This document shows positions 1,911-62,692 of a stretch of DNA of 64,000 bases, piece by piece. Source of the DNA: an uncultured delta proteobacterium (GTDB lineage Bacteria; Desulfobacterota; Desulfobaccia; Desulfobaccales; 0-14-0-80-60-11). How positions within the stretch are numbered: the stretch's first letter is position 1; each line of letters opens with the position of its first letter. Under the pieces are notes generated by a model. The model had not been told where the DNA came from and did not search any database. It saw nothing but the letters and a program-made list of their open reading frames with translations. The stretch is from the NCBI GenBank assembly GCA_963739295.1, contig CAVTZS010000015.1:13574-77573 (forward strand). Reading direction: 5' to 3'. The translations under genes were made by a program, and so were the position numbers.

Positions 1911-2103
1911 TGTGGGGGAGGGCCAGGGAGTTGAACTCCCTGCCCTCCCCCCACGCCCCCCTCCCAACCCGCTTAAGTTGACCCATAGAAGTCGGGGCCT
2001 CAGGCCCCGACTTCTATGGGTCAATTCTAAACATAAGGGGTTGGGGGTGGGGGTGAGGGGGAGGATTGTAAGTGGGCCTGCGGCCCCTGGCCCCCTCCCC
2101 CTC
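1911..2103 (+). repeat. composite intergenic repeat, full-length copy (hp1-hp2-hp3), forward
   Basis: hp1 is GGGGGAGGGCCAGGGAGttgaaCTCCCTGCCCTCCCCCC. hp2 is CCTCCCAACCCGCTTAAG, a 43-nt GC hairpin, then ATAAGGGGTTGGGGG. hp3 is GGGGGAGGATTGTAAGTGGGCCTGCGGCCCCTGGCCCCCTCCCCC. Confidence 0.9.
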
Positions 2104-2108
2104 AATTT

Positions 2109-3459
2109 CTATAACCTCCCCTCAGCCTGCAAGGCGTTTTTCAGGGCCAGGGCCTTTTCGGCCACGGCCATGGGGGTGGGGCCCAGGATGCGGATCATGG
2201 GCTCCTTGCCCACCTCGCCCTTATCGTAGATCAAGTCCGGGGGCGCTTCTCCGGGCTTCAGCACCGAGGCCACGCCCCAGGCCAGGGTGCCGCCTTCTTG
2301 GTCCTTGATTTCGTGCGGCTCCTGAGAACGGTCAAAGCTGGCCAGCCGCAGGTGCAGCAGGGGGGCCAGGCCTTCCAACCCCTCGAGATATTTGATATTC
2401 ATGGCGCACCGGAGGTCCGGGTGGGTTTCCATGGCGGCTAAGATGATGGCGGCGATGTGGCGGGAAGCGCCGAATGCCGGGGGCGCAGGGATGATCAGGC
2501 CCTGGGGGCTTTTCAGCAAGCGGCCTGGAAAGGCCGCCACATCCTGGGGCCCTTCGGGAAAAGGGGTGGCATAGCCCAGATTGGTCATAACTTCCGGCAC
2601 CAGGGACTCAATTCCTTCCTCTTGCAGGCGGGCCGCGGCGATTCGCAAAGACTCCAAGACCTCATAGCGGGACAACTCCCGGGCAAAGGGGGCATAGGGG
2701 TTGACCGGCCCCCGGCCCCGGCCCAGGGGTAGACCATAGCGGAGGGCCTGGGCCGTCAGGCGGCGGGCTTGATTTACCGCCTCCGGCATGGAGAGCCCCA
2801 GGGCCAGACCCGCGGCGCAGGCCGTGGCCAGGGCGCAGCCCGAGCCATGGTTGTGGGGCGCAGGCAGGCGGGCTCCCGGCAGTTGATAAGAATTCTTCCC
2901 ATCGGTGAGGAGGTCCACCGGCTCTCCCGGGCAGGTGGCCACCCTTGGCCAGGACCCAGCGGGGTCCCAGGGCTTGCAGGCGACGGGCCGCTTCTTCCAG
3001 GTGCGAGGGGCTAGTGATTTCCAGACCGGTGAGCCTGGCCGCCTCAAATACATTGGGGGTCAGGAGGTGCGCCAGGGGGAAGAGCTCCTCCCTCAGGGCC
3101 TTGACCCCGGCCTCCTCCAGCAAGGGGGAACCGTCGCTGGCGGCCAGGATGGGGTCCAGCACCAGGGGGAGGGAGAGCTCCTTAAGGAGCCGGGCCACCG
3201 TCTTAACAATCGCGGCCGTGCCCAACATGCCTATCTTGACGGCAGCCACCGGGAAATCACTCACCACCGCTTCCAGCTGGGCGGCCACCACCTCGGGGTC
3301 CACCGGGTGGACTGCCTGAACCCCCTGGCTATTCTGAACGGTTAGGGCGGTAGCCACGGTCAGGCCGTAGGTCCCCATGAGGGTGGCCACCTTCAAATCC
3401 TGCTGCAGGCCCGCGCCCGCGCCCGGATCGGAGCCGGCAATAATCAACACGGTCTTCAT
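2109..3459 (-). CDS. thiDN: ThiD (HMP/HMP-P kinase) fused to a ThiN-type thiamine-phosphate synthase domain; one apparent frameshift near 2925
   Basis: MKTVLIIAGSDPGAGAGLQQDLK...VLAKGGHLPG continues after a 1-nt frame change as EPVDLLTDGKNSYQLPG...HNHGSGCALATACAAGLA. A ThiN-like domain follows (VPEVMTNLGYA, DVAAFPGRL, FGASRHIAAIIL). Span is 1351 nt = 3n+1. Confidence 0.8.
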
Positions 3460-4442
3460 CACATCCTCCGGCCAAAGTGGAGACAACGCCGGGCCTCGCC
3501 TATCAAAGCCCGGCGCCAGTCCCAGGGAAGGTAATCATTTCGAGCAATGCGTAACTCAGCCAAGGCCATGTAAAAGGGGTTGAGAAGTACAAGGCGCTGG
3601 GCCAGGTCCGGGGGCGCCTGAACCGCGTTCAGGTATGAGGAAAAAAGGTGGCGGATGTAAGGTTCGGCCCGGCCCATCTCTCCGGTGCGCCAGCCCCAGG
3701 CGTGCTTCAGTTCGCCCGCCACCCAGGAAAGGTCCCAGAGGCGGTCCCCGATCCTGAGACGCTCCAGGTCCAGGGCCACCACCCGGCCCTCGGGAAAGAG
3801 GAAATTGGTGGGGGTGGCATCGCCGTGGATCAGTACCTGGCGGTCAGGAAATCTGCCCAAGCGGACTTCCCAGGCGACCCTTTCTTTTTCCAGGGCCCCC
3901 TCGTCCTCCGGCGTCAGCAGGCCCAGCCCCCGTAACTGGCCCCTGAGCTTATCCAGGTAATGGAGAGCCGGGTCAGGGGAGACCGGGCCTTCCGGGATGG
4001 GGCGGGTATGGAAGATCGCCAGGAGTTCGCCCAGGTTTTCCAGGCCGCGGTAAAGGAGGTCGCTCCCGCCATTGGCGCAGGCCTGGATCATGAGCTGGTC
4101 CAGGTGGGGGCCGGGTATATCCTCCAGCAGCAGACCCAGGCGCACTTGGGCGCGGCATCCCAGCAGCCGGGGTATCAGGCGCGCCCCCGTGCTCAGCCCC
4201 AAATCTGCGGCCCAGAGATAATTATCATATTCTCGCACCAGGCTCCGATCCCCGGGTGAACGGGGGGGATAGGCGAGGAAGAATTTCCCCACGGCTCGAG
4301 CCCTGCTTTGAGTGCAGACCAAGCGATAGACCTGGCGGGATGAGGGCAAGGGCTCCAGAATTATTTCTTCCGAGGGTGAGCCAGCATTCTCCGTAGGCAG
4401 CAGCTCGCCCAGCGCGCTGGCCAGGGGCTCACCCGCCAGCAA
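3459..4442 (-). CDS. phosphotransferase (APH/choline-kinase-like) family protein
   Basis: Kinase-like motifs HGDATPTNFLF and ALDLERLRIGDRLWDLS. ATGA stop/start overlap with thiDN. Confidence 0.6.
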   Translation of the reverse strand: MLAGEPLASALGELLPTENAGSPSEEIILEPLPSSRQVYRLVCTQSRARAVGKFFLAYPPRSPGDRSLVREYDNYLWAADLGLSTGARLIPRLLGCRAQVRLGLLLEDIPGPHLDQLMIQACANGGSDLLYRGLENLGELLAIFHTRPIPEGPVSPDPALHYLDKLRGQLRGLGLLTPEDEGALEKERVAWEVRLGRFPDRQVLIHGDATPTNFLFPEGRVVALDLERLRIGDRLWDLSWVAGELKHAWGWRTGEMGRAEPYIRHLFSSYLNAVQAPPDLAQRLVLLNPFYMALAELRIARNDYLPWDWRRALIGEARRCLHFGRRM

Positions 4443-4448
4443 ATCGGC

Positions 4449-5231: not shown

Positions 5232-5418
5232 GTGGGGGGAGGGCCAGGGAGCTGAGCTCCCTGCCCTCCCCCCAGTTCCCCCTCCCAACCCGCGGATGGG
5301 GCTGGGGGAAGCGGGGCCAACGGCCCCGCTTCCCCCAGCCCAAAAAATATCAAGGGATTGGGGGTGGGGGTTTGGGGGAGGATTGTCAGGGGGCCTGCGA
5401 CCCCTGGCCCCCTCCCCC
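5232..5418 (+). repeat. composite intergenic repeat, full-length copy, forward
   Basis: Same three-module architecture as 1911-2103, with a different but self-complementary hp2 tip (GGGCTGGGGGAAGCGGGGCCaacGGCCCCGCTTCCCCCAGCCC). Confidence 0.9.
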
Positions 5419-5427
5419 AAGTCTTTA

Positions 5428-6456: not shown

Positions 6457-6577
6457 TGGGAAGGCGGGCTTTCAGCCCGACTTCCCAAAATCCCTGACGC
6501 AGATGGAAGGGTATGGGGGGAGGGCGGGTCAGGGGCGGTTCGGCGAACCGCCCCTACGCCCCTGGCCCTCCCCCCAC
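6457..6577. repeat. composite intergenic repeat, partial copy with nested palindrome
   Basis: An hp2-like hairpin TGGGAAGGCGGGCtttcaGCCCGACTTCCCA is followed by GGGGGGAGGGC...GCCCTCCCCCC arms. The arms enclose AGGGGCGGTTCGgCGAACCGCCCCT. Confidence 0.8.
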
Positions 6578-7297: not shown

Positions 7298-7342
7298 TGG
7301 GGGAGGGGGCTAAGGGCCTCAGGCCCCTGGCCCTCCCCCCAC
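7298..7342. repeat. composite intergenic repeat, solo hairpin derivative
   Basis: TGGGGGAGGGGGCTAAGGGCCtcaGGCCCCTGGCCCTCCCCCCAC. It contains the tatD stop codon. Confidence 0.8.
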
Positions 7343-8137
7343 AATCTCTTCCTCCGGCCTCCCGTCCAGGCCGAAGGCGGTCAGGGTATTTTGCCAGGTC
7401 TGGCTGGCCACTTCTTCCAGGGAGAGGTCCAGGATTTGCGCCAGTTGTTGGGCCGTGGCCCTGACGTAGGCCGGCTCATTGCGTTTCCCCCGCCAGGGCT
7501 GGGGAGGCAGATAGGGACAATCGGTCTCCACCAGCACTCGATCCAGGGGCAGTCTTTGGGCCACCTGGCGCAGAGCCTCCGCCTTGGGATAGGTGAGGGT
7601 GCCGGAGAAGGACAGGTACAGGCCCAGGTCCAGGAAGGCCTGGGCTTCTTCCAGGCTGCCGCCGAAGCAGTGCATCACCCCACCCCAAAGCCGGCTGCGG
7701 TATTCCCGGAGGATGGCCAGGGTGGCGCTGGTTGCCTCCCGGGTGTGAACCACCACGATTTTTTTCAGTCCATAAGCCCATTCCAGTTGCCGGCGAAACC
7801 AATGCTCCTGCACCGCCTCGGGGGCGCGGCGGCGATAGAAATCGAGGCCGGTCTCGCCCACGGCCACTACCTTGGGATCGGCGGCCAGGGAACTTAGGGC
7901 CTCCAAATCCTGGTCCTTGAGAGACCCCACCCCATGGGGATGAACCCCGATGGTGGCAAAGACCCCGGAGCACTTCCGGGCCGTGTTCAGGACCTGGCGG
8001 GATTGGTTTAAGCCGATCCCCACATTGATAATCAAAGCCACCCCAGCCTCCCGGGCCCGCTGCAACACCTCCCCTTGGTCGGGTTGGAGCTCCGGCAGAT
8101 CCAGGTGGGCATGGGCGTCAGCCAGGCGCATGGTCAT
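7319..8137 (-). CDS. tatD: TatD-family metal-dependent hydrolase
   Basis: MTMRLADAHAHLDLPE, GVHPHG, VAVGETGLDFYR, HTREA, ETDCPYLPP. The internal Met at 8137 is preferred over the track start at 8203. Confidence 0.8.
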   Translation of the reverse strand: MTMRLADAHAHLDLPELQPDQGEVLQRAREAGVALIINVGIGLNQSRQVLNTARKCSGVFATIGVHPHGVGSLKDQDLEALSSLAADPKVVAVGETGLDFYRRRAPEAVQEHWFRRQLEWAYGLKKIVVVHTREATSATLAILREYRSRLWGGVMHCFGGSLEEAQAFLDLGLYLSFSGTLTYPKAEALRQVAQRLPLDRVLVETDCPYLPPQPWRGKRNEPAYVRATAQQLAQILDLSLEEVASQTWQNTLTAFGLDGRPEEEIVGGGPGA

Positions 8138-8212
8138 ATCTTTAAGCTTATGGACGAATGTTCCCTTGCATGGTAAAATAAACAAAATTTCGGCGCCCTG
8201 CAAGGAGAGGCG

Positions 8213-11935: not shown

Positions 11936-13291
11936 ATGACGGCCTTTTCGGACCTGGCCCAGGCCACGGCCTGGGTCTTTGACTTACAGAAATTCGGCAT
12001 CAAGTTCGGGCTGTCCTCCACCCGCCGCCTGCTGGCCCGGCTGGGCCTGCCATATCAGACGGGCCGCTATATCCACATCGCCGGCACCAACGGCAAGGGT
12101 TCGGTGGCAGCCATGCTGAGCGCCATTCTCACCCGGGCCGGCTATCCGGTGGGCCTGTTCACTTCCCCCCATCTGGTACATTTTAGGGAACGCTATCGCT
12201 TGAAGGATCTGGAGGTCTCGGAAGAGCGCCTGCTGGCTTTGATCAACGAGGTGCGGGCCGCGGTGGACGGGTCCGAGCCTCCCACCTTTTTTGAGTTCGC
12301 CGCGGCCCTGGCCTTTCTCTACTTTTTCCAGGAAGGCGCGGAGCCCATCATCCTGGAAACCGGCATGGGGGGGCGACTGGATGCCACCAATATCATTCGC
12401 CCCCGGGTAACGGTAATCACCAATGTTTCCCTGGACCATCAGGAATATTTGGGAAATAGTTTAACTGCCATTGCGGGAGAAAAGGCCGGGATCATTAAAG
12501 GCGGAGCGCCTTTAGTTACTTTTGCCAAGCAAAAACTGGTGCTGGACCTGCTCCGGCAGCGCTGCCGCCAGCGGGGCGCGCCCCTCTATCTGGGCGGGGT
12601 GGATTTTAAGGTTAGGGGGCGAGGCCAGCAGTTCGATTACCAGGGTCTCCACCAGAGACTCCAGGGCCTGACCCTGAGCCTGGCGGGGCGCCACCAGTAT
12701 CGCAATGCCGCCCTGGCCCTGGCAGTGCTGGAGATTCTGAACCGGGACGGCTTTACGGTAAGTGAGGCGGCGATCCGGGAAGGTCTCAAGCTGACCCGCT
12801 GGCCGGGCCGCCTGGAGCAGGTTCCCCAGGACCCCCAGGTTCTGCTGGACGGCGCGCACAATCCGGCGGCCGCCCTGACCCTGGCCCAGGCCTTGAAAAA
12901 TGGCCACCGCCAGGGGCGTCTCATCCTGGTGGTGGGCATCATGGCCGACAAGGACGTGGAGGGCATCCTGGCCCGGCTCCTGCCCCTGGCCCAGATGGTT
13001 ATCTTCACCCAGCCCCGCTATTTCCGGGCTGCGACCCCCCAGGACCTGGCCCGGCGGGCCCAACCATACAACCTTGAGATTATTCAGGTTCCCCAGGTGG
13101 CGGCGGCGGTCCGGCGGGCCCAGGAACTGGCCGGGCCCCAGGACCAGATCGTGGTCACCGGCTCCCTTTATACCGTGGGGGAGGCCCAGGAGTATTTTCA
13201 GGGGACGGGGGGAGAGGGCCAGGGGTCAAAGACCCCTGCCCCCACCTCAAGGGGAGAGTCAAAATGCGCATCTTTGTCTCCGGTTCTCTAG
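11936..13291 (+). CDS. folC: bifunctional folylpolyglutamate synthase / dihydrofolate synthase
   Basis: HIAGTNGKGSV P-loop, FTSPHLVHFRERY, ETGMGGRLDATN, LDGAHNPAA. The 3' end reads through a degenerate repeat copy. Confidence 0.85.
   Translation: MTAFSDLAQATAWVFDLQKFGIKFGLSSTRRLLARLGLPYQTGRYIHIAGTNGKGSVAAMLSAILTRAGYPVGLFTSPHLVHFRERYRLKDLEVSEERLLALINEVRAAVDGSEPPTFFEFAAALAFLYFFQEGAEPIILETGMGGRLDATNIIRPRVTVITNVSLDHQEYLGNSLTAIAGEKAGIIKGGAPLVTFAKQKLVLDLLRQRCRQRGAPLYLGGVDFKVRGRGQQFDYQGLHQRLQGLTLSLAGRHQYRNAALALAVLEILNRDGFTVSEAAIREGLKLTRWPGRLEQVPQDPQVLLDGAHNPAAALTLAQALKNGHRQGRLILVVGIMADKDVEGILARLLPLAQMVIFTQPRYFRAATPQDLARRAQPYNLEIIQVPQVAAAVRRAQELAGPQDQIVVTGSLYTVGEAQEYFQGTGGEGQGSKTPAPTSRGESKCASLSPVL
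13207..13247. repeat. degenerate solo hairpin of the intergenic repeat inside the folC 3' end
   Basis: GGGGGGAGAGGGCCAGGGGTCaaaGACCCCTGCCCCCACC. Confidence 0.6.
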
Positions 13292-14555: not shown

Positions 14556-14560
14556 TTTTT

Positions 14561-14753
14561 TGGGGGAGGGGGCCAGGGGTCGCAGGCCCACTTACAATCC
14601 TCCCCCAAACCCCCACCCCCAATCCCTTAAGTTAAATTTTGGACTGGAGAAGTCGGGGCCTTCTCAGGCCCCGACTTCTCCAGTCACTTAAGCGGGTTGG
14701 GAGGGGGGTGTGGGGGGAGGGCAGGGAGGTCACCTCCCTGGCCCTCCCCCCAC
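14561..14753 (-). repeat. composite intergenic repeat, full-length copy, reverse
   Basis: Reverse complement of the hp1-hp2-hp3 order. hp2 tip is CTGGAGAAGTCGGGGCCttctcaGGCCCCGACTTCTCCAG. Confidence 0.9.
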
Positions 14754-16631
14754 AGGCGGCGGGGCCTCCGGCGCAGGGCGAGGAGCTTCCGGAGGCGGCG
14801 TGGGCTCGGTATAGCTCATGGTGAACCGAAAATGGGGAAACAGCCGGGGCAGGCGCATCATGTTGAACACCATGACGCCGATGGCCAGTCGGTCCAGCCA
14901 GGAGGACATGGGCCAGCCCAGGTGCACCGTGACCTGGCGGTCGGCAAACTCATATTGCACCACCCGCAGCAGGGCCACCATGCGGTGATAAAGGCTCAGT
15001 TTGAGGAGCGGCAGGCGGAAATGGTTGGGGGCCATCTTGGGTGGGATGCCGGCCCGGGGAGAATACAAGGTCATGAAGGCGGCATTATCCTGAACCTCGT
15101 GACCCGCCTCCCCGGAGCGGCGGAAATAAATATGGATATCCGGGGAGGAAGATTCAGCCAGATACAAGATCATCTCCATCTCGCTGTCGCCTTTCTCGAT
15201 CTCCTTGCGTTCCGGGGCGCGCTTCTGGGCCATGAGGAAACCGCCCAGCAAGACTACCCCCGTGACCGTGGCCCACAGGATAGTTCCATGGATTTTCTTT
15301 GACGCCAGAAAGACAAAGCAACTTAAGAAGACGATCCACATGATCAGGGTCACCAGACGGCTGGTGTTGAAGTGGATCACCTCCTTGGTGCCCATGAAAT
15401 AGCGATAGATGATGAGGGACCCCATATTGATGCAGAAGCTGGCGATGAGTCCCAGGGCATACATGTCCGCCAGGGTCTCTTGCCGGCCCGCAGTGATAAA
15501 GATGATGAGAGAAAAGAAGGTGGCATTGGTCAGGTGGATGCGATAGAGGGACTGGCGGCGGTTGGTGGCGATGAGCCAGAAAAATCCATAGCGATGGGCC
15601 ACTCGCTCCAGCAATTCGCTGGAGGCCACAAACGCGGTATTGACCGCCATGATCAGGGTGAAGCTGGCCAGGGCCGCCACCGCGACTCCAAAGGGGATGC
15701 CGTTTATCAGGGTGGCGTAGTGGGTGATCAGGTCTCCTTCATGCGCCTTGAAATCAATATGTGCTGATAGGGCCAGGGCCGCCACCAGGGGGGTCACCAG
15801 GCCCACGGTGCAGGCCAGGAAGATATAAGCCTTGCCAGTCTCCCGCCAATTGCGCACCAGGCCGGCGGTCTGGAGTACGGATTCCACTCCGGAGTAGGCC
15901 AGGATACAGAAGGCCATGTTGGCGATGAAGATCTGATAACCCTGGAAGAAGGTACCCTGTCCCAAGAGCCGGCCCGCGGTCCAGACTTCATCTTTCATCC
16001 GCCCCAAGGTGGCGCTGTCCAGGGCCAGAACGCCGGAGGCGATCAGGTTAAGGAAGATGAACGCCGCGGCTATGAAAATCGTGAAGGTGACCCGGGCGTT
16101 TTCCCTGATGCCCATGATATTCAGTCCCGCTATGACCCAAATAATGACGAGTACCAGAATCATCAACACATTATGGGACAGGGCGAAAAAGGAGGCCGCG
16201 TTGGACACTGCACTCACCGCCGAAATACAGGCGGTGAGGATATAGTCCACCATGATGGAGGCCACGGCCACGAAGGAGGTCATGGGCCCCAGGACCAGGT
16301 AAGAAAAGGAATAGACCCCGCCGCCGATGAGCCCATGATGCTCTAAGATTTCGGCAATCTCCACCAGCCGGGTGGTCATGTAGTGGATGAACAAGGAGGT
16401 AAAGGCAATAAAGAAAATGGCGCTGGCGCCGATGAAGCGGAAGGCTTCCGCGGGGGCGTAAAACACCGAGGTGAGCTCATCCATCAGGGTGATGACCGCG
16501 ATGGACAGCCAGGTGAGCCACCATCGGCCATTTTGATAGTAGGAGAGCCGCCCCGGCTTGCGGAGCAACAGGAAAAAGACGGCCACCACGGCCAGGTTGA
16601 TTACCACCAGGACGCTGGTTTTCATATCCAA
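14730..16631 (-). CDS. APC-superfamily permease with C-terminal cytoplasmic domain (KimA-like, putative cation/K+ transporter), paralogue 1
   Basis: 633 aa, about 12 TM. GGGVYSFSYLVLGP...VDYILTACISAVSA resembles the KimA GGGAY...VDYILT pattern (recalled). The C-terminus runs into a repeat copy. Confidence 0.6.
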   Translation of the reverse strand: MDMKTSVLVVINLAVVAVFFLLLRKPGRLSYYQNGRWWLTWLSIAVITLMDELTSVFYAPAEAFRFIGASAIFFIAFTSLFIHYMTTRLVEIAEILEHHGLIGGGVYSFSYLVLGPMTSFVAVASIMVDYILTACISAVSAVSNAASFFALSHNVLMILVLVIIWVIAGLNIMGIRENARVTFTIFIAAAFIFLNLIASGVLALDSATLGRMKDEVWTAGRLLGQGTFFQGYQIFIANMAFCILAYSGVESVLQTAGLVRNWRETGKAYIFLACTVGLVTPLVAALALSAHIDFKAHEGDLITHYATLINGIPFGVAVAALASFTLIMAVNTAFVASSELLERVAHRYGFFWLIATNRRQSLYRIHLTNATFFSLIIFITAGRQETLADMYALGLIASFCINMGSLIIYRYFMGTKEVIHFNTSRLVTLIMWIVFLSCFVFLASKKIHGTILWATVTGVVLLGGFLMAQKRAPERKEIEKGDSEMEMILYLAESSSPDIHIYFRRSGEAGHEVQDNAAFMTLYSPRAGIPPKMAPNHFRLPLLKLSLYHRMVALLRVVQYEFADRQVTVHLGWPMSSWLDRLAIGVMVFNMMRLPRLFPHFRFTMSYTEPTPPPEAPRPAPEAPPPVGGGPGR

Positions 16632-19360: not shown

Positions 19361-19552
19361 GTAGGGGGAGGGACAGGGACCTGAGGTCCCTGCCCTCCCC
19401 CTACAACCCCCTCCCCACCCGCATAAGTTAGCTGGGGGAAGGCGGGGCCAGAGGCCCCGCCTTCCCCGGCTCTAAAGAAAATCTTAAGGGGTTGGGGGAA
19501 GGGGTTTGGGGGAGGATTGTAAGTGGGTCTGCGACCCCTGGCCCCCTCCCCC
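19361..19552 (+). repeat. composite intergenic repeat, full-length copy, forward
   Basis: hp1 inner stem is GACCTGAGGTC. hp2 tip is GCTGGGGGAAGGCGGGGCCagaGGCCCCGCCTTCCCCGGC. Confidence 0.9.
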
Positions 19553-19558
19553 AATTCT

Positions 19559-21280: not shown

Positions 21281-21407
21281 GGGGGCTTATTCTCCGGGCA
21301 AATGTGACCTCACTCCTTACTTACACAATATATTTTCTAGATGCAATCCCTGGGGAGCCCTCAGTCGATTTTCTCTCCTTCAAGGAGGCCTCTGAAAAAG
21401 TCATCTT

Positions 21408-21594
21408 GAGGGAGGGGGCCAGGGGTCTGCGACCCCTGGCCCCCTCCCTCAAGCTCCCTCCCCCAACCCCTTGCAGGGTTAGAAAATGGCTGGAAAGTCG
21501 GGGCCATAGGCCCCGCCTTTCCAGCCCCTTCTGAGGGTTGGGAGAGGGGTGTGGGGGGAGGGCAGGGACCTCGGGTCCCTGGCCCTCCCCCCAC
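21408..21594 (-). repeat. composite intergenic repeat, full-length copy, reverse
   Basis: hp2 tip is GCTGGAAAGTCGGGGCCataGGCCCCGCCTTTCCAGC. hp1 inner stem is GACCTCGGGTC. Confidence 0.9.
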
Positions 21595-23409: not shown

Positions 23410-24060
23410 TTATCTCCTCCTTTTTCTCCAGCCTACCACGCCCAGGAGGCCGGAGCCCAGGAGCCATAGGGTAGGCAGGACGGGCACTACCTGGGAACTG
23501 ACCGTTTCATTTGAACGTACGTATAACAAGTTATTATCATAATATATATTGCCACTATAAGCTTCGATATTACTCTGGGTCAATAGCTTGGGAAGGGGGG
23601 GAACCTCGCTATCGTCCCAAAATGACACGGGGACTTCCATACCAACTTCAACATCATATTGATTGCCAGAGATTTCGAAAGAAGATAAGGTCGCAAAGAA
23701 TTGGTCAAGGGTGGCTCCAGAGCTTGAGAACCAATTAAATAAGTAAGAAGGAAGAGATGAGCTGGGGGTGTAAGTCCCATCTGCATTGGTGCCGGAGAGG
23801 GTAAGGGTTAAGCCGTCCGGGTTATAAAATGCTTCGCTATATTGCAGACCTGAATTTACCGAAACGGGGGGAGAGGCCAGGGTAAAATTTAATATAAACG
23901 TGCCGGTGCCCGAGCCAATTCCCAAGGGGTCGATTGGGTTGCCAGAGTCGGCTTTGACAAAATTTTCCTGAATGTTGTAAGAGATGGTGTCCGCCTGGAG
24001 GGGATGGACCATCACGAGCGCCAGGGCCAAAGCCAACCAGATAAAAGTAGTTTTCTTCAT
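23410..24060 (-). CDS. secreted protein with PEP-CTERM sorting signal
   Basis: N-terminal signal peptide (MKKTTFIWLALALALVMVHPLQA). C-terminal VPVLPTLWLLGSGLLGVVGWRKRRR has the PEP-CTERM pattern. The gene is visibly AT-richer than its neighbours. SD is AAGGAGG. Confidence 0.7.
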   Translation of the reverse strand: MKKTTFIWLALALALVMVHPLQADTISYNIQENFVKADSGNPIDPLGIGSGTGTFILNFTLASPPVSVNSGLQYSEAFYNPDGLTLTLSGTNADGTYTPSSSLPSYLFNWFSSSGATLDQFFATLSSFEISGNQYDVEVGMEVPVSFWDDSEVPPLPKLLTQSNIEAYSGNIYYDNNLLYVRSNETVSSQVVPVLPTLWLLGSGLLGVVGWRKRRR

Positions 24061-24101: not shown

Positions 24102-24137
24102 AAAAAAAACCGGATTGCCTCAACTCAGGCAACCCGG
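24102..24137 (-). terminator. riboswitch expression-platform terminator
   Basis: Minus strand CCGGGUUGCCU-gaguug-AGGCAAUCCGG (11 bp) followed by U8. The 5' arm overlaps the 3' strand of the aptamer. Confidence 0.7.
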
Positions 24138-29982: not shown

Positions 29983-30045
29983 GTGGGGGAGGGCCAGGGA
30001 CCTGAGGTTGAATGGGCCTCCGGCCGGCCCTTAGCCCCCTCCCCC
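29983..30045. repeat. composite intergenic repeat, short hybrid copy
   Basis: GTGGGGGAGGGCCAGGGACCTGAGG...GGGCCTCCGGCCGGCCCTTAGCCCCCTCCCCC. It contains the malQ stop. Confidence 0.75.
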
Positions 30046-32309
30046 AGAATTTCCTTTCCCCCGATACCGATTTAATCGGGCCGCCAGGCGGGTCGTCTCC
30101 GGGGCCTGGCGCATCTGGTTCAAGGTCAGGGGCAGCTTCCGGCGCCAGTTGGGGTGCTCCTCCCTGGTGCCGGGCAGATTCTGCTGCTGGGCCCAGCCGA
30201 AGATCTCTTCCAGGCGTACTTCCAGCAGGGCGGCCTCGCTTTGGGCCAGATACTCCAGGACCGCGAGGCGTAATTCCTCCGGGCAGCATTGTACCGCATC
30301 GCCTTCCACCGGGAAATTAGGAGGTAAGAGCTCCCGTTGCAAAAGCGCCTCTAACAACTTCAGGCGATCCAGCTTCCGGGCCACGGTGTCCTTTTCCGCC
30401 AACTGGGGATCGGGATAAAGGTTTAAGGCTCGTTTAAGCTCAATATCCTTTTCCTGCCAGAAGCCAGCCAGCGTCGGCAGGTCGTGGGTGGTGACTGCGG
30501 CCACCGCCTTGGGGGGATAATCTTCCGGAGCGCGAAAGTCCCCGCCCCAGGTCCGTTCAAAGTAAAAGACCCGGTAGGAGAAGACCCCGGCTCGGCCCAG
30601 ATCCCGGCGGATGCGGGGGGCCACGGTGCCCAGGTCCTCCCCGATGATCAGGGTGCGGCGCCGGGCGCTCTCCAGGGCCAGGATGGCCAAAAGCTCCCGG
30701 GCCGGGTAGGTTACGTAAGCCCCGTGCCGGCGGTCTGGCCCGGGGGAATCCAGAACAACCGGAATAAGCCCATGACGTGGTCCAGGCGGAGCATGCCCTC
30801 CTCCGGCAAGTTGGCCCGCAGGGTGTCGATAAAGAATTGATATTTTGACTGCCGCAGGCGCTCCGGGATCATGGGGGGGAGCCCCCAGTTCTGGCCTTTG
30901 GGGTTGAAGCCATCGGGGGGCGCGCCGAGGGCGGCTCCCTGGGCGAAAAGTCCCGGATGGGCCCAGGTGTCAAATCCTCCCGGGTCCGCGCTTAGGGCCA
31001 GGTCCTGGTAAAGGGAGAAGGGGAGGCCCTGCTGGCGGGCCTGCTGGCAAACCTGGGTCAGTTGGGTGGTGGCCAGCCATTGTCCGTATTGGTGCAGGCG
31101 GATTTCCCGGCCGTGCTCCCGGAAGAAGGCGGCGACGGCAGGGGCTTCAGGTGCTTGATAGGCTGGGGGCCAGCTCCGCCAGTCACTTTGTTTAAAATGA
31201 TCGGCCAGCGCGCTATATAGCCCGAATTTAGCCAGAGACTCCCCCGACGCGGCCAGGAACCGGGCGAATTCCACCCCCCGGGAAGTCCGGGGCGCCTCCG
31301 GCGGCCCATGCCGAGACTCAAAGGTCTTATGCAGCAGTTCCAGAACTTGCCGCTTTAAACGATAAACTTTCGAATAGGCTACCAATTCCCTGGCCTGGAG
31401 GCGAGACTGGGCTAGACCGAAGTCCCGCCCCGTCAGAAAGGCTCGGGCTTCCGGAGAGTCCGTAAGTTCAGGGATCATTTCCAGGTTCAGGTATAAGAAA
31501 TTAAGGAAAGCGCGGCTGGTGGGGGCATAGGGGCTGGGGTCGGCGTTGGCCTCCGGTTGTGGCGCGTGCAGTGGATTTACCCCTACAAAAGCGGCTCCCA
31601 GCTCCTCGGCCCAGGTAATCAACTCCAGGAGATCGCCGAAATCCCCCATGCCCCAGTTACTTTCACTTCTAAGGGCATAGAGGGGCAGATTGAAGCCCCA
31701 GACCCGGCGGCCTGGGGTCAGCCAATCCGGCAGATAAACCCTGGCGGGGGCGATGATCAGGCGTGATTGCCCTGTTTCCTGGCGACTGCTGGCCTTAACT
31801 TGCAGGGTCAGGTCGTAATACCCCAACTCCAGGTCAGGGGGAAGGGGAAGCTCCAGCCGGGTCCGAAAACCTCTTTTCACCTGCAGGCTAACCGGCTTGA
31901 CCGGGAACTTGGCCCGGGCCTCCCAGGTCGACTTTTGGCCGGACTCATCCGTAATCTGCCCCTGAATCTCAACCGTTGGTGGCAGCTCCAAGGAGGGCGT
32001 CCAGGGATAGACGACCACTCGGGGGGCCCGGCCAGCCAGAGAGATTGCCTGAACCGGCGACAGCAAGGGGGGTAAGGACTGCCGGCGCCGTTCCTTTAGC
32101 TCCTGGTTCAGCCGGGCCGGATCCTCCCAGGGGAGGCCCATGGCGCGGAGCAGGGCTTGAAAGGTGGCCAGAGAAGTGCGCCGGCGCCGCCCGAAGTTAT
32201 CCCGATACTCCGGGGCAATGCCGCACAGGCGGCCCAAGGCCGCGATCTTGTCGGTGGTTTCTTGGTCGGGCATGAGGGCCAACTTAAACTGCCGCGGCGG
32301 CTTGGGCAA
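30031..32309 (-). CDS. malQ: 4-alpha-glucanotransferase (GH77); one apparent frameshift near 30718-30730
   Basis: GVNPLHAPQPEANADPSPYAPTSRAF, HVMGLFRLFWIPPGQTA, then in another frame GAYVTYPARELLAILALESARRRTLIIGEDLGTV. Span is 2279 nt = 3n+2. Start may be the Met at 32273. Confidence 0.85.
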
Positions 32310-40640: not shown

Positions 40641-40783
40641 AAGCATCCTACCCGGGATTATGCGGCAGAAATGCCTTTGGGGGCCCCTTTTACCGAGTTT
40701 CACCCCGACAAGGTTCCTCTTCTTGTCGCCAAATTGTCTGGTCAGGGGCATGAAAGAACTAATTCCGAGAGGGAATAACTGAT

Positions 40784-41122: not shown

Positions 41123-41169
41123 GAATTAAGCAGGGGTTGCGGGATTAGCCGTAACCCCTTGATTTTCTT

Positions 41170-41246
41170 TGGGGTGAGCGACGGGACTTGAACCCGCGAC
41201 CGCCGGGGCCACAACCCGGTGCTCTGCCACCTGAGCTACGCCCACC
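41170..41246 (-). tRNA. tRNA-His (anticodon GTG) with encoded G-1 and CCA
   Basis: Hand-folded cloverleaf: G(-1), acceptor GTGGGCG/CGCTCAC, D arm GCTC-AGGTGGCA-GAGC, anticodon arm CCGGG-TTGTGGC-CCCGG, variable CGGTC, T arm GCGGG-TTCAAGT-CCCGT, discriminator C, CCA. Confidence 0.9.
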
Positions 41247-41417
41247 ATCTAAGGTTTAATTAACACATAATTCCTCCCCTGGCAAGGCCGTGGAATCACC
41301 AGACGATCAGGGGGTCATGGCCCAGAGCCTGCAAATAATGACCCTGGGCAAGCATCTGCCCTTTACAAGCGCGGCATTTGGTCATAGCATTGAAATTAGC
41401 GGGGGTAGGGAGAGAAC

Positions 41418-45688: not shown

Positions 45689-45875
45689 GTGGGGGGAGGG
45701 CCAGGGACCTGAGGTCCCTGCCCTCCCCCCACACCCCCCTCCCAACCCGCAGAAGGGGCTGGAAAGGCGGGGCCTATGGCCCCGACTTTCCAGCTATTTT
45801 CTGACCCTGTAGGGGGTTGGGGGAGGGAGTTTGAGGGAGGGGGCAGGGGCCCACCGGCCCCTGGCCCCCTCCCTC
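45689..45875 (+). repeat. composite intergenic repeat, full-length copy, forward
   Basis: hp2 tip is GCTGGAAAGGCGGGGCCtatGGCCCCGACTTTCCAGC. Confidence 0.9.
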
Positions 45876-45877
45876 AA

Positions 45878-47766: not shown

Positions 47767-47828
47767 TTGGGGGAGGGCAGGTAGGGGCGGTTCGCGAACC
47801 GCCCCTACGTCCCTGGCCCTCCCCCCAC
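47767..47828. repeat. intergenic repeat, solo hairpin with nested perfect palindrome
   Basis: TTGGGGGAGGGCAG-GTAGGGGCGGTTCGCGAACCGCCCCTAC-GTCCCTGGCCCTCCCCCCAC. Confidence 0.85.
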
Positions 47829-49716: not shown

Positions 49717-50868
49717 ATGCCACGCACTATAGAAACGAGTGTAAATCCCAAAGTATTGCAATGGGCTAGAGAGAGTATTGGATTGGGAGTTAATAATGTC
49801 GCTAAAAAAGTGAAATTAAAAGAGGAAGCAATAAGAAAATGGGAATCGGGTGAGGGTAAAATTAGGTTAACTCAGCTAGAAAAACTTGCCGATATTTATA
49901 AACGACCATTAGCAGCATTTTTCCTATCGAGCCCACCAAAAGAACCACCATTACCTGATGATTTCCGTGGATTAGCAAAAGGTCAATTAGCATTTTCTTC
50001 AAAAACATTACTTGGAATTAGAAGAGTAAGATATATTCAATCATTATATTTTGATTTGGCTGCATCAATGAATGTTCGGCCGAATGCGAAAATAAAAAAA
50101 ATAGAACTATCGAATAATCCAGAACTATTGGCAAATGAGATAAGAAATCAATTAAACATTCATATAGAAGACCAATTCCAATGGAATGACGAAAGAAGCG
50201 CCCTTATCGAATGGAAAAAAATAATAGAAAGCCAAGGGGTATTAGTTTTAGAAATTGCTATGCCTTTAGAAGAAGCAAGGGCTTTCTCATTGGCTGGCGA
50301 AGGAATACCGGTTGTTGTGCTCAATTACAGCGATTACCCTAATGGAAGGATTTTTTCAATATTTCACGAATATGCTCATATTCTGCTTAATCATGGCGGA
50401 ATATGTAATCCTTTGGCAGAAGAGACAGAGGAAATCTCAATAGAAAAATTCTGTAACCATTTTGCTGGAGGTTTTTTAGTTCCAAAGACTGCCTTATTAA
50501 AGTTAAATGAAGAATATGATAAGAAGTATGATATTGATAAAAAATTAACTAAACTTGCTAGCAAATTTAAAGTTAGTAGACAAGTAATCTTAAGACGATT
50601 ACTATCGTTGGAATTAATTAACAAAGATTATTTCCAAAGAAAGAATCAAGAGTTAATTGCTGAATTTAAAAGAATTAAAAGACAGATAAGAGGGAGGGCT
50701 GTTCCTTCCGAACAGTGTATTCGGAAAAATGGATTTTACTTTGTTTCACTAGTTTTAGATGCTTATAGAGGAGGTAAAATAACCTATAGCGATGTTTCGG
50801 ATTACTTAGGTATAAAACTTAAATATGTTCCTAAGGTTGAAGAACGCCTTGGGGAAATATTTTCTTAA
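49717..50868 (+). CDS. XRE-type HTH fused to ImmA/IrrE-family zinc metallopeptidase
   Basis: N-terminal HTH-like VLQWARESIGLGVNNVAKKVKLKEEAIRKWESGEGKIRLTQLEKLADIY. HEYAHILLNH is the HExxH motif. Confidence 0.75.
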   Translation: MPRTIETSVNPKVLQWARESIGLGVNNVAKKVKLKEEAIRKWESGEGKIRLTQLEKLADIYKRPLAAFFLSSPPKEPPLPDDFRGLAKGQLAFSSKTLLGIRRVRYIQSLYFDLAASMNVRPNAKIKKIELSNNPELLANEIRNQLNIHIEDQFQWNDERSALIEWKKIIESQGVLVLEIAMPLEEARAFSLAGEGIPVVVLNYSDYPNGRIFSIFHEYAHILLNHGGICNPLAEETEEISIEKFCNHFAGGFLVPKTALLKLNEEYDKKYDIDKKLTKLASKFKVSRQVILRRLLSLELINKDYFQRKNQELIAEFKRIKRQIRGRAVPSEQCIRKNGFYFVSLVLDAYRGGKITYSDVSDYLGIKLKYVPKVEERLGEIFS

Positions 50869-51339
50869 ATGAATAAAGGCTTGTTTCAGAAATATTGCAT
50901 AGACACAAGTTCTCTAATAGAATTAAGGCATTACCCTCGGGTAACATTCCCTTCATTGTGGGAGAAGATTGAGGAACTTATAGGTCAGGGAATTCTAATA
51001 GCTCCTAGGGAGGTATATAGGGAACTTAAGCAACAAGCAGACGATATATATTTTTGGGCAAAGAATAATAAAACAATGTTTAAGGCTATAAATGGAAAAG
51101 AGTTATCAGAAGTGAAAGATATTTTAAAAGTTTATCCAGACCTTATTAATTATAATAAAACTACACCCGACGCCGATCCTTTCATCATTGCTTTAGCTAA
51201 GCATAGAGCATGTACTGTTATTACTCAAGAAAGATTGAAGCCTTCTGGTAAACCAAAAATTCCAAATGTTTGCAAAGATTATGGAATTAACTGTATTGAT
51301 TTATTAAGTTTATTTATTGAGCAAGAATGGTCTTTTTGA
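50869..51339 (+). CDS. DUF4411-family (PIN-like nuclease fold) protein
   Basis: ATG immediately follows the upstream TAA. YCIDTSSLIEL, DADPFIIALAK, VITQE match the recalled DUF4411 pattern. Confidence 0.7.
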   Translation: MNKGLFQKYCIDTSSLIELRHYPRVTFPSLWEKIEELIGQGILIAPREVYRELKQQADDIYFWAKNNKTMFKAINGKELSEVKDILKVYPDLINYNKTTPDADPFIIALAKHRACTVITQERLKPSGKPKIPNVCKDYGINCIDLLSLFIEQEWSF

Positions 51340-54766: not shown

Positions 54767-54808
54767 TTGGGGGAGGGCAGGGAGCTCAGCTCCCTGGCCC
54801 TCCCCCCA
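54767..54808. repeat. intergenic repeat, solo hp1 hairpin
   Basis: TTGGGGGAGGGCAGGGAGCTCAGCTCCCTGGCCCTCCCCCCA. Confidence 0.85.
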
Positions 54809-58005: not shown

Positions 58006-58092
58006 GCCATTTTCATAGAAAAGCCTGCGGTTCTAGAAATTATCGATATGAACCAGGCTTGGTATTAAGCAATTTCTGAAGGGGAAAGCACG

Positions 58093-58135
58093 TAGGGGCG
58101 GTTCGCGCACCGCCCCTGCATCCCCGACCCTCCAC
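58093..58135. repeat. nested-palindrome unit of the intergenic repeat, nearly alone
   Basis: GTAGGGGCGGTTCGCGCACCGCCCCTGC followed by ATCCCCGACCCTCCAC. Confidence 0.7.
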
Positions 58136-60799: not shown

Positions 60800-61314
60800 T
60801 TTTCCTCCAAGATATATTCTTTAAGGCTTAATAATTTTCTTCAGCTCAAGTTAGGGTGTCGGTATCCCGCTTGCTCCGCAGACCTGCGCCCCCTCCGGTT
60901 AAATCCAGCCCCGGTGATTATCAGAGTTACCAGGACAAATTTTGGATTTGTATCTAATTATATATATATAAAATTACCACCAAAAATAAAAGATTTTTAA
61001 TTAAGCCTTTTTGATTATAGGCCCCCCACCCCCCATGTCAAGCAGAAAATACCAATTTTCACAAACCGCTTTTGGCTTGGGCCAAGGCTCCCATTGACTC
61101 AGAGCAGAGTTGATTTTATCCCGAAGCCTGGGCCAAGGGCTGCTGAGGGCTAGAATCACCTTAGGTCGGGCACCCGATAATGGTAAATTATGATATCTTT
61201 TAGGTAACAGGTATTTAAAGGAACCTGGCAATCCTTATCTTGGGGTACGGTTGGCGGCCGTGCCCGGTGTCAAGAAGGAGCAAAGGGAAAGCCAGGTGAG
61301 GGTGATACGCCAAG

Positions 61315-62499
61315 ATGTCTCAAGAGATCGAGGCCAGACTGGAGTTGTTGCGAAAATTGGGCACGCGCCTGGCCGCGCGGCGGAAAGCCCTGGTGGCCGC
61401 GGCCGGCGAAGATACCGGCACCCCTTGCACCATCGCCGGCCTGGAAGTGGACCTGGCGGTGGACCATCTCCAGACTATGCATCTGGAGGCGCCCCAGGTG
61501 GCGGGCAAAGCCCCTTATGGCACGGTGGCCGCCATCTTCCCCTATGACGCCCCTCCCATCATGCTGGCCCGGGTGGGAGGCGCCGCGGTTCTGGGCGGGA
61601 ACCTTTTTCGGTTCAGTTGCTCTTCCCAGATTCCCCGTACTGCCAGCCTGCTTGCAGATATAGTCGCGCCCTTTTCCGAGTTCGAAGCAGTACTATGGGC
61701 GGATAACCGCCGTTTTGGAGAGGATTGCCTACGCAACCCCCAGGTGCGGGTTCTGTTCATCTCGGGAGGCGGCGAGTTGGGGAAGGCCTATGCCCAGGAG
61801 GCTCACGCCTTCGATAAGCTCTTTTTCGCCGGGCCCAGCGGCCTGCCGCCGGTCCTGCTGTTCAAGGACGCCCCCCTGGATAAGGCGGTGAGGTTTGTAG
61901 TCCGGCGGGCCTTCATCAATGGCGGCCAGTATTGCACCACCCTGAAAAGGGCCTACATCCACCGGGAAATCTATGAGGCGGCCCGGGACCTTATCCTAAA
62001 AGAGATGGAATACATCCAGGTGGGGGACCCCCGGGACCTCAGAACCTGGATCGGCCCCATCAAGGTGGCCCGCACCCGCAAGCTCCTGGAACGGGCCCTG
62101 GCCGCCCTGAAAGAGCCCCACTTTTTACTGCCCCCCCGCCAGGACGGTGAATGGCAGGGTCCCTTCCTGGTGGAGACTCCCGAGCCTCCGGACCTGGAAC
62201 TCTTCGGGCCTCTGTTGGCCTTGTGCCCGGTGGCCAGCGACGCCGAGGCGGTGTCCCGCGGCCTTGCCACCCGTTATCCCTTCCTGCTGAGTTTCTTCGG
62301 CACCCCCCCACCCGGGGCCCGGGAAGAGCTCACCACCACCTTTGGCATGGTTTACGACAATCCCGACTTTCTCTTCACTCCCCTGCGGCTCCCCTTTGGC
62401 GGAAAAAAGGCCAGCGGCTGGATTATTGAGAATCGCAAGGGGCAATTGACCAAACGGGACGGCGCCTTTATCTACAGCGCCGAACTGGTGCGAGGGTGA
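61315..62499 (+). CDS. aldehyde dehydrogenase family protein (short form)
   Basis: 394 aa. FINGGQYCTTLKRAYIH contains the catalytic-Cys region. Confidence 0.65.
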   Translation: MSQEIEARLELLRKLGTRLAARRKALVAAAGEDTGTPCTIAGLEVDLAVDHLQTMHLEAPQVAGKAPYGTVAAIFPYDAPPIMLARVGGAAVLGGNLFRFSCSSQIPRTASLLADIVAPFSEFEAVLWADNRRFGEDCLRNPQVRVLFISGGGELGKAYAQEAHAFDKLFFAGPSGLPPVLLFKDAPLDKAVRFVVRRAFINGGQYCTTLKRAYIHREIYEAARDLILKEMEYIQVGDPRDLRTWIGPIKVARTRKLLERALAALKEPHFLLPPRQDGEWQGPFLVETPEPPDLELFGPLLALCPVASDAEAVSRGLATRYPFLLSFFGTPPPGAREELTTTFGMVYDNPDFLFTPLRLPFGGKKASGWIIENRKGQLTKRDGAFIYSAELVRG

Positions 62500-62508
62500 C
62501 GGAGTTTT

Positions 62509-62692
62509 AGGGGAGGGGGCTAAGGGCCGCAGGCCCACTTACAATCCTCCCCAAACCCCACCCCCAATCCCTTATGATTATGATTTAACGGAAAAGGCGG
62601 GGCCAAAGGCCCTGCCTTTTCCGACCCCATAAGCGGGTTGGGAGGGGGGCTTGGGGGGAGGGCAGGGACCTCAGGTCCCTGGCCCTCCCCCC
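62509..62692 (-). repeat. composite intergenic repeat, full-length copy, reverse
   Basis: hp2 tip is CGGAAAAGGCGGGGCCaaaGGCCCTGCCTTTTCCG. hp1 inner stem is GACCTCAGGTC. Confidence 0.9.

Follow-up and report, generated by a model that had tools for sequence, protein, structure and literature searches.

A modular three-hairpin repeat family at gene ends in Desulfobaccales chromosomes

Introduction

Small palindromic interspersed repeats are represented in bacteria by several described systems. Repetitive extragenic palindromic (REP) sequences and bacterial interspersed mosaic elements (BIMEs), together with the REP-associated tyrosine transposases (RAYTs), have mostly been studied in Proteobacteria, and in Escherichia coli REPs are established to slow 3′ exonucleases. 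The BOX elements of Streptococcus pneumoniae are modular, occur in variants without the middle module and have an unknown mover. Correia and ERIC elements are co-transcribed with their neighbors and reach hundreds of copies, in full-length and internally deleted forms; the Correia elements have, in addition, a TA duplication and classical 26-bp terminal inverted repeats (TIRs). Here, we describe a ~190-bp intergenic repeat composed of three hairpins (hp1, hp2, and hp3). It was found in a 64,000-nucleotide stretch of DNA, hereafter the window, of an uncultured delta proteobacterium of the Desulfobaccales (assembly GCA_963739295.1, contig CAVTZS010000015.1, positions 13,574 to 77,573). An initial annotation, made from the sequence alone, had reported about 19 copies of the repeat in the window and likened it to BIME/REP or to MITEs (transposable elements of the miniature inverted-repeat type). 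With a probability of roughly 0.6, we read the family as lineage-specific, non-autonomous, palindromic mosaic repeats of the REP/BIME type, which are moved in trans.

Results

Inventory of the Repeat Family

Searches with hidden Markov models of the modules (nhmmer) yielded 17 sites in the window, ten full or near-full copies and seven shorter derivatives, with a summed length of 2.26 kb or 3.5% of the sequence (Table 1). The number is lower than the initial estimate of about 19 and includes two sites (13208-13246 and 6458-6577) that were not in the earlier list. The ten longer copies of that list were all present within 3 nt of the proposed positions and in the proposed orientations (five forward and five reverse), two of them (28497 and 26345) being defective, and the solo hairpins listed at 7298, 25375, 29983, 47767, and 54767 proved to be real. 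A MAFFT alignment showed the same module order in all ten copies; the succession hp1-hp2-hp3 and the motifs quoted for it were correct. The 16-mer of hp1 matched the window 42 times with up to three mismatches, vs. 6.3 matches expected, and none of 100 shuffles reached 42. About 30% of the intergenic gaps of the window hold an element. Genes were called in a crude way from open reading frames (ORFs) and third-position GC content, and the calls were then corrected with Pfam and synteny; the lengths of G/C homopolymers in the window may carry long-read errors.

The most alike, youngest pair of copies in the window, 21406 and 45689, is 91% identical, with homology that starts 7 nt before hp1 and fades ~14 nt past hp3. 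The earlier proposal that the solo hairpins arose by internal deletion found support in the fusion of arms in the chimera 29984-30046, in the loss of the hp2 core from 28497-28629 and in the comparison of orthologous sites, some of which are full in one species but reduced to a solo hairpin in another (see below). We thus regard the short forms as deletion products.

Anatomy, Folding and Covariation

In its minimum-free-energy fold, a full copy forms hairpins in tandem, three in number, whether treated as DNA (-74.4 kcal/mol, z -8.35) or as RNA (-144.1 kcal/mol, z -9.7). The left arm of hp1 is complementary to the right arm of hp3, yet three separate hairpins, and not a single long one, make up the best fold. 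The whole element is bounded by GGGGGAGGG...CCCTCCCCC, and the outer arms of hp3 read G5AGG and CCTC5. In hp2, the arms CCCCCCTCCCAACCCGCTTAAG and CTTAAGGGATTGGGGGWGGGGG are conserved and complementary to each other and flank the core together with an A/T-rich spacer. As this spacer sits only 3′ of the core, the element has a polarity.

Covariation was assessed in an alignment (A1) of 40 full copies, taken from the window and from some 20 further species, on which the helices of hp1 and the hp2 core were imposed. Paired cells made up 94.6% of the total, vs. 84.0% in column shuffles and 45.6-64.8% when the partners were slid. Cells changed on both sides numbered 111, vs. 27.6 in the shuffles (0 of 500 reached 111) and 22-42 with slid partners. 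Two-sided changes were seen in 12 of the 13 pairs of the hp2 core, and the apex of hp1 covaries as well (one pair is CG in 23 copies and GC in 16), while the ten pairs of the hp1 outer stem are without any such change and nearly invariant across species. An invariant foot with covarying apices is what a hairpin would be expected to show if its base were bound by a protein; the outer stem of hp1 may mark a foot for sequence-specific recognition. At the variable T/A position of the hp2 outer stem, inspection of the alignment by eye revealed no covariation, and the arms look conserved in sequence. G-U pairs were rare in the A1 helices, with no excess on one strand; the covariation pattern points to no particular transcribed strand.

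Every full copy carries a short-loop G-quadruplex motif on each strand, at the junctions of the hp2 right arm with hp3 and of hp1 with the hp2 left arm; GGGATTGGGGGTGGGGGTTTGGGGG is a candidate G-quadruplex sequence of the element. Altogether, 27 of the 40 canonical G-quadruplex motifs of the window fall within the elements, i.e., within 3.5% of the sequence. A stretch that follows the A/T tract, TTAAGGGATTG, resembles by eye the integration host factor site WATCAANNNNTTR; it is exact in one copy and has two mismatches in the consensus. Inspection of the sequence revealed no hairpin followed by a U-tract, in either orientation, and no signature of an intrinsic terminator. Read forward, the spacer comes after the hp2 core as a mixed, A-rich stretch; read in reverse, it comes before the core. 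The sequence after hp1 and hp3 is C-rich or A-rich. We also considered the hp2 core as the native terminator of a gene, around which hp1 and hp3 were inserted. This was rejected, as the cores are not followed by a U-tract and are common to unrelated loci (21406 and 45689 in the window, and several loci of the genome MFD00032).

Placement at Gene Ends

As compiled in Table 1, 16 of the 17 sites overlap a stop codon or lie at most 25 nt from one, and only 36796-36981 has no called stop codon within this distance. Several copies take up the entire space between two convergent genes, leaving 4-7 nt free. The neighbors are ordinary chromosomal genes, which encode thiamine and cobalamin enzymes, a 2-hydroxyacyl-CoA dehydratase and its activator, ABC transporters, a YcaO-TPR protein, acyl-CoA and aldehyde dehydrogenases, and endonuclease V. 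Copies inside operons, as described initially, were found, e.g., at 5232-5420 (HGD-D/BcrAD) and 25376-25420 (ABC transporter). Where the flanking genes of the window are co-directional, the transcript reads the element forward in two cases and reversed in four. The GC skew of the window keeps one sign, and the orientation of the elements is still 5:5.

The statement that copies sit only between genes holds with regard to the location at gene ends, but four ORFs extend into a hairpin. The TatD ORF 7319..8203(-) and the permease ORF 14730..16631(-) end in IVGGGPGA and VGGGPGR, respectively; in both, the left arm of hp1 is read in frame (7319-7345 and 14730-14753) and the TGA stop codon lies in the hairpin loop. 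The Mur-ligase-like ORF 11936..13291(+) reads through the solo hairpin at 13208 and is longer than its orthologue in L097 (L-numbers denote sequence stretches from relatives), and ORF 30031..30690(-), a 3′ fragment of MalQ, shares 16 nt with the chimera 29984-30046. Tails of the form GGGPGx followed by a stop, with the hp1 left arm in frame and the stop in the loop, also occur on long ORFs of L008, L051, L073, L077, L079, and L091. Their presence in several species suggests that the repeat repeatedly supplies new C-termini and stop codons.

Imperfect palindromes directly past stop codons would also suit the attC sites of integrons, and the CCCAAC ... GTTGGG of hp2, as read from the sequence, is faintly like the core sites of attC. 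However, the copies lie in both orientations (5:5), next to housekeeping genes in synteny instead of variable cassettes, and the 40 gene products scanned include no integrase. Attc-like recombination sites, a reading to which we attach next to no credence, are thus rejected on the orientation of the copies, the genes around them and their synteny.

Distribution Among Relatives

A scan of 185,579 species genomes with the exact hp1 pattern gives a lower bound for the taxonomic range of the family. Among the matches listed, more than 94 stretches from about 24 species carried the pattern, and all came from metagenome-assembled genomes labeled Desulfobaccales, Desulfobaccia, Thermodesulfobacteriota or, by an older name, ‘delta proteobacterium’. 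The next relatives of the YcaO-TPR protein of the window (76-82% identity) are named Desulfobaccales or Thermodesulfobacteriota. The order hp1-hp2L-hp2R-hp3, solo hairpins and partial forms recur in the genomes of relatives, and the core-less deletion type of 28497 is present in L031, L034, and L079. Copies of one relative, MFD00032.bin.1.71 (L028, L037, L054, L057, L063, and L074), have an extra AT-rich hairpin, hp0 (~TTCTCTTTGC-NNN-GCAAAGAGAA), which lies, inverted, outside hp1, outside hp3 or on both sides, giving a five-hairpin mosaic. No hp0 is present in the window; a weak flank signal in other copies may be its remnant.

Many short-read contigs end in the repeat, which would be compatible with an artefact of assembly. 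Yet the assemblies with hp1 include long-read ones, with contigs up to 1.55 Mb, and the identical architecture appears in independent long-read and short-read assemblies of ~24 species. An artefact is contradicted by these data and can be dismissed.

Outside the lineage, hp1 gave no match in the viral contigs of IMG/VR, and blastn detected no match in phage records and plasmids, nor any match of a full copy in 5,426 E. coli genomes. An origin from a phage or plasmid was rejected on the basis of the viral, phage and plasmid searches. In Rfam, the elements reached no gathering threshold and gave only sub-threshold matches to miRNA precursors, i.e., to generic hairpins; the c-di-GMP riboswitch and tRNA-His are the only hits of the window above threshold. 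Our literature searches also returned no name for a repeat family in the Desulfobaccales lineage, in agreement with the initial annotation, which could not assign the element to a named family. A survey of MITEs (PMC11602168) counts 25 of them in phages of Desulfobaccales, and nothing ties them to the three-hairpin family.

Orthologous Sites

The coding DNA of the relatives is ~71-81% identical to that of the window; nonetheless, elements lie at several of the same intergenic sites in two or more species. In L039, the window sites 1911 and 5232 each carry a copy, in the same orientation and with different hp2 cores and hp3 interiors, and L097 holds a full copy in the HGD-D/BcrAD gap in the orientation opposite to that of the window and L039. 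One site is occupied in L022 and L077 in opposite orientations and with different truncations. At another, the copy of L058 is full and those of L012 and L076 are solo hairpins; at still another, L063 shows the full form and L047 a solo hairpin. Where the window has the sites 7298 and 6458-6577, L097 shows short gaps without an element (9 nt for 6458-6577). Orthologous sites thus reveal long persistence combined with gain, loss, truncation and re-use. As ~30% of the gaps of the window are occupied, it would be no surprise if the same permissive gap had been hit independently.

Such persistence could also be due to the host. According to this explanation, the repeat is a cis element selected at gene ends for the protection of mRNA 3′ ends, for the punctuation of operons, as a hairpin/G-quadruplex switch or for the binding of a nucleoid protein, its mobility being secondary or extinct. 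Occupied orthologous sites between genes with only 72-78% nucleotide identity would be in agreement with it, yet at the same site the orientation flips between species, and other sites are empty or solo in relatives without a visible replacement. Compensatory changes keep the pairing and the RNA fold is extremely stable (-144 kcal/mol), but no G-U excess points to a selected RNA strand and no U-tract follows any hairpin in either orientation. Similarly, the position of 16 of the 17 sites within 25 nt of a stop codon and the concentration of G-quadruplex motifs in the elements (27 of 40) would suit a function at gene ends, whereas the variable orientation to transcription (two forward and four reverse) and the disrupted native ends of four ORFs would not. 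In the light of these data, we regard a host-selected element as rather improbable.

Ends of the Element

As judged by eye and from a composition profile, rather than by a systematic left/right k-mer comparison, no target-site duplication was seen beside 39 of the 40 copies (the remaining one lacked an anchor). None was detected, either, where the homology of the 91%-identical pair 21406/45689 stops, in line with the earlier statement on this point. The outer arms GGGGGAGGGCCAGGG and CCCTGGCCCCCTCCCCC are inverted repeats, as also noted initially, and are weakly continued in the flanks. On the outward 5′ side, the outer flanks are both poor in C, and in combination they form a weak inverted repeat of ~10 nt outward (RRGAnnTTGT-GGGGG...CCCCC-ACAAnnTCYY). 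A conserved target tetranucleotide or pentanucleotide was not found beside the left end. Among the 40 gene products of the window, Pfam revealed no integrase and, as reported before, no transposase; a full-length autonomous element with the same ends was found neither among these genes nor among the repeats longer than 250 nt in the ~805 kb of related sequence.

These results bear on whether the element is a classical MITE, i.e., an internally deleted DDE transposon with GGGGGAGGGCCAGGG ... CCCTGGCCCCCTCCCCC as TIRs, moved by a full-length insertion sequence elsewhere in the genome. We consider this unlikely. The size of ~190 bp, the intergenic location, the two orientations and the inverted-repeat ends, with complementarity that goes on weakly for ~10 nt outward, would be those of a MITE. 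Each end, however, is a complete palindrome that is also found alone, and is in this respect REP-like and not TIR-like; besides, no duplication was seen at the youngest pair and the 39 copies, and neither a longer element with these ends nor a transposase was found in the window or the ~805 kb of related sequence. Of the two likenesses drawn initially, the one to BIME/REP stands, with units that are solo, deleted, chimeric or nested and lie in both orientations, but the one to MITEs is at odds with the absence of target-site duplications.

RAYT Enzymes and a Second REP Family

A tblastn search of the ~805 kb of related sequence with E. coli RayT uncovered two types of RAYT. The first, in L050 (2968-3474, minus strand), lies between trpC and trpF and scores 161.7 bits with NF047646 (cut-off 80). 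Of its eleven metagenomic relatives (L099-L109), seven (L099-L104 and L107) are visibly located between the same two genes. The trpC-trpF RAYT genes are bracketed by REPs of the ATAGGGCGGCCCGTGGCCGCC type, which are absent from the window. Those of L050 and L103 are flanked, in addition, by a duplicated piece of the 3′ end of trpC.

The second type, in L077 (5542-6573, minus strand), is a RAYT-like domain fused in frame to YraN/UPF0102, above the threshold for Pfam Y1_Tnp and below that for NF047646. One part of the fusion is an HUH tyrosine-transposase domain and the other, YraN, a PD-(D/E)XK-type nuclease. More than 100 homologues of 316-333 aa were detected (three further loci in Table 1). 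The gene is single-copy and resides in three further genomes in the operon ffh-rpsP-khpA-rimM-trmD-rplS-rnhB-[RAYT-YraN]-rsmI. Its coding sequence contains embedded GTAG-tagged REPs (GTAGGGGCGGACCTGCGTGTCCGCCC), near residue 100 and where the two domains join. The literature searches turned up no paper on a RAYT-YraN fusion. Thus, the lineage holds an enzyme class that moves REPs. The RAYT genes seen, however, are tied to other REPs and not to hp1/hp3.

The GTAG-tagged REPs constitute a second, rarer family of classical type, GTAGGGGCG...CGCCCCTAC, with a variable apex. In a hand count over 805 kb, ~8 of ~35 GTAG-REP sites, a fifth to a quarter, replace the apex of hp1 exactly, which suggests that hp1 may be a preferred landing place or a relative of the GTAG-REP. 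Moreover, the inner 30 nt of hp1 aligned with the REP embedded in the RAYT-YraN gene with a score of 30.5, vs. a shuffle mean of 12.7 (0 of 500 reached the score). The three-hairpin element might be the genomic partner of the RAYT-YraN fusion, with hairpins and G-quadruplex motifs recruited to mark or process gene 3′ ends. We think it unlikely that this is so. If true, element and enzyme would form a new, vertically inherited repeat-enzyme partnership.

Other Features of the Window

A c-di-GMP-I-GGC riboswitch aptamer (RF03167) at 24124-24204 on the minus strand scored 75.8 bits vs. a gathering score of 59; it lies upstream of a 216-aa ORF, 23410..24060(-), with an unusually low third-position GC. 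The region 37400-42400 is of low GC content (47-55% vs. ~60%) and is next to tRNA-His (41170-41245, minus strand). It contains PMT_2 glycosyltransferase-like, SPASM-domain and radical-SAM genes and small unknown ORFs and may be an island acquired at the tRNA gene. At 49717-51339 on the plus strand, a two-gene cassette of 38% GC encodes an HTH_3 + Peptidase_M78 (ImmA/IrrE-like) protein and, after it, a DUF4411 protein; the two have the appearance of a toxin-antitoxin or defense-type pair gained by horizontal transfer. On the minus strand, the interval 14730-18589 holds two paralogous genes for amino-acid permeases (633 and 655 aa) in tandem. Their DNA is 74-88% identical over repeat blocks, which indicates a tandem duplication. 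In the region 28631-32309 on the minus strand, the malQ gene (Glyco_hydro_77) is divided between the ORFs 30711..32309 and 30031..30690, and the hDGE-amylase gene is in overlapping ORF pieces, whereas its L095 orthologue is intact (437 aa). The split genes are either pseudogenes or the result of homopolymer indel errors of a long-read assembly; indel errors are suggested by the G/C homopolymer lengths together with the split malQ and amylase.

Table 1. Sites of the three-hairpin repeat, modules of the exemplar copy, and REP and RAYT features. Positions refer to the window unless an L-number is given.
Feature	Position	Strand	Description
Full copy	1914-2101 (element span 1911..2103)	+	Fills gap of two convergent genes; left stop at 15 nt, right stop at 7 nt
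Full copy	5232-5420	+	In operon, between HGD-D (stop 7 nt away) and BcrAD-type activator gene
Degenerate composite	6458-6577	-	hp1 arms with GTAG-REP (6528-6557) as apex, then hp2-core-like hairpin; no hp3
Solo hairpin	7298-7342	-	hp1 left arm and hp3-type right arm; provides last codons (IVGGGPGA) and TGA stop of TatD ORF
Solo hairpin	13208-13246	+	Within 3′ tail of Mur-ligase-like ORF, translated
Full copy	14560-14753	-	Between convergent genes; permease ORF 14730..16631(-) terminates in hp1
Full copy, exemplar	19361-19554	+	Fills gap of M54 peptidase and YcaO-TPR genes (convergent); 6 nt and 4 nt to their stops
Full copy	21406-21594	-	23 nt to stop of ABC-ATPase gene, 125 nt to YcaO start
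Solo hp3-type hairpin	25376-25420	-	Between two permease genes of branched-chain amino-acid ABC transporter operon
Near-full copy, degenerate hp3	26345-26508	-	7 nt from phosphoglycerate mutase gene stop
Copy without hp2 core	28497-28629	+	Core deleted between two CTTAAG motifs
Chimera	29984-30046	+	hp1 left arm and loop joined to hp3 apex and right arm; internal-deletion derivative
Full copy	36796-36981	-	21 nt upstream of metallophosphoesterase gene start
Full copy	45689-45877	+	0 nt from acyl-CoA dehydrogenase stop; 50 nt before cobalamin adenosyltransferase start
hp1 with foreign apex	47767-47828	-	GTAG-tagged REP GTAGGGGCGGTTCGCGAACCGCCCCTAC (47781-47808) replaces apex
Solo hp1	54767-54808	-	9 nt past a stop codon
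Full copy	62507-62693	-	7 nt past aldehyde dehydrogenase gene stop; upstream of endonuclease V
hp1 of exemplar	19361..19404	+	20-bp stem with single bulged C; outer arms GGGGGAGGG(C/A)CAGGG / CCCTGCCCTCCCCC
hp2 left arm	19407..19427	+	CCCCCTCCCMACCCGC-TAAG; sequence conserved; inverted repeat of hp2R
hp2 core	19430..19471	+	GC-rich hairpin, hypervariable sequence, pairing kept by compensatory changes
A/T-rich spacer	19472..19482	+	3′ side of core only; no U-tract in either transcript orientation
hp2 right arm	19483..19505	+	CTTAAGGGRTTGGGGGWGGGGG; forms canonical G-quadruplex motif with hp3 left arm
hp3	19506..19554	+	Outer arms GGGGGAGG / CCCCCTCCCCC; variable interior with ATTGTAAGT internal loop and GGGYCTGCGRCCC apex
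G-quadruplex motif of exemplar	19488-19512	+	Motifs on both strands
G-quadruplex motif of exemplar	19397-19420	-	Motifs on both strands
GTAG-REP	47781-47808		Nested in hp1
GTAG-REP	6528-6557		Nested in hp1
GTAG-REP	58092-58119		Solitary
RAYT-YraN fusion	L110:3001-3957
RAYT-YraN fusion	L111:3001-3957
RAYT-YraN fusion	L112:3001-3999

Discussion

Our results favor a family of REP/BIME-type repeats that would have spread, and been kept, within Desulfobaccales chromosomes over a long time. A host-encoded enzyme would copy the elements in trans by recognizing the invariant foot of the hp1/hp3 hairpins. Its likeliest candidate is an HUH tyrosine transposase of the RAYT type that would act on hairpins extruded in single-stranded DNA; we offer this particular step tentatively, as one possibility for the mover. 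Selection would spare only those insertions that land past a stop codon and ahead of the next ribosome-binding site, and the surviving copies would be co-transcribed as very stable hairpins of the 3′ untranslated region or between cistrons and be passively carried. Recombination between the repeated arms of a copy would then give rise to core-less, chimeric and solo forms, with sites being re-used. The hairpins may also slow 3′ exonucleases, as REPs do in E. coli. The RAYT-type mover, the extrusion of hairpins in vivo and any effect on mRNA stability or termination are inferred.

Several observations weigh against this scenario. No very recent copies were seen, the best pair being 91% identical, and selection by the host could equally explain why species that share 72-78% nucleotide identity have the same sites occupied. 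None of the RAYT loci inspected provided an enzyme tied to the hp1/hp3 hairpins: at 15 RAYT loci in relatives (L050 and L099-L109; L077 and L110-L112), hp1/hp3 were never found, flanking or embedded, and the REPs present there in either position are of the ATAGGGCGGCC... / ATAGGGCGGCCCGTGGCCGCC or GTAGGGGCG... types. The similarity of hp1 to other REP variants than the one in the RAYT-YraN gene is weaker, as 14 and 136 of 500 shuffles reached the score, and these are short GC-rich palindromes. Finally, a fixed GTAG tag was not seen on hp1. GT(G/A) precedes the G-run in 22 of 40 copies; the remaining copies have TT, CT, or GC, which covary with the 3′ side and thus behave as stem pairs.

The family amounts to several percent of these genomes and breaks short-read assemblies of abundant uncultured sulfate reducers of sediment and soil. 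Since it alters real gene 3′ ends, knowing it should improve assembly, gene calling and annotation in Desulfobaccales. A REP/BIME-type assignment would extend persistent, vertically inherited repeats of this kind far outside the Proteobacteria. With a foot conserved in sequence and apices conserved in structure only, the repeat offers a natural test of what keeps repeats alive, and the RAYT-YraN fusion with its embedded REPs is a concrete lead on the domestication of repeats and their enzymes.

Among known systems, REP/BIME sequences with their RAYTs in Enterobacteria and Pseudomonas share with our element the short GC-rich imperfect palindromes with a bulge, the high copy number, the extragenic location just past stop codons and in operons, and the occurrence as singletons and as mosaics with conserved linkers. 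Further likenesses are the lack of target-site duplications, a conserved stem foot with a variable apex, long vertical persistence in one lineage and RAYT genes in that lineage. As in BIMEs, a fixed arrangement (hp1-linker-hp2-linker-hp3) and its core-less, chimeric, solo and hp0-extended forms recur across species. On the other hand, the element appears as a composite of ~190 nt with three hairpins in fixed order (up to five in one relative) rather than as a doublet, as REPINs do. Unlike REPs, it shows no invariant GTAG/CGTC tag in the aligned copies, and the RAYTs found go with other REPs; unlike enterobacterial REP/BIME sequences, it has no sequence match in E. coli genomes.

The pneumococcal BOX elements (boxA-boxB-boxC) are similar in architecture only, with three modules in fixed order, middle-less variants, stable structure and an intergenic location. 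They come from an unrelated host phylum, and in our element each module is a hairpin of its own, the end modules being related to each other. Correia (CREE/NEMIS, Neisseria) and ERIC/IRU elements, again in architecture only, resemble it in their 100-200 bp size, intergenic location, inverted-repeat ends and deleted forms; in contrast to Correia elements, it has no duplication and its ends are autonomous palindromes. Palindrome-associated elements derived from IS200/IS605, e.g., the small repeats of Deinococcus, also have a subterminal hairpin at each end, no TIR-type transposase signature and no duplication, with the HUH family as candidate mover. They differ from the present repeat in that no conserved target was found at its left end, that it is oriented 5:5 under a GC skew of one sign and that no TnpA/TnpB partner was seen for it. 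In behavior the repeat is thus closest to REP/BIME and REPIN-RAYT systems, and in architecture to modular repeats like the pneumococcal BOX. It is best filed as a new family of a known class, the small palindromic interspersed repeats, distinguished by its fixed three-hairpin design, its order-wide conservation and its G-quadruplex motifs.

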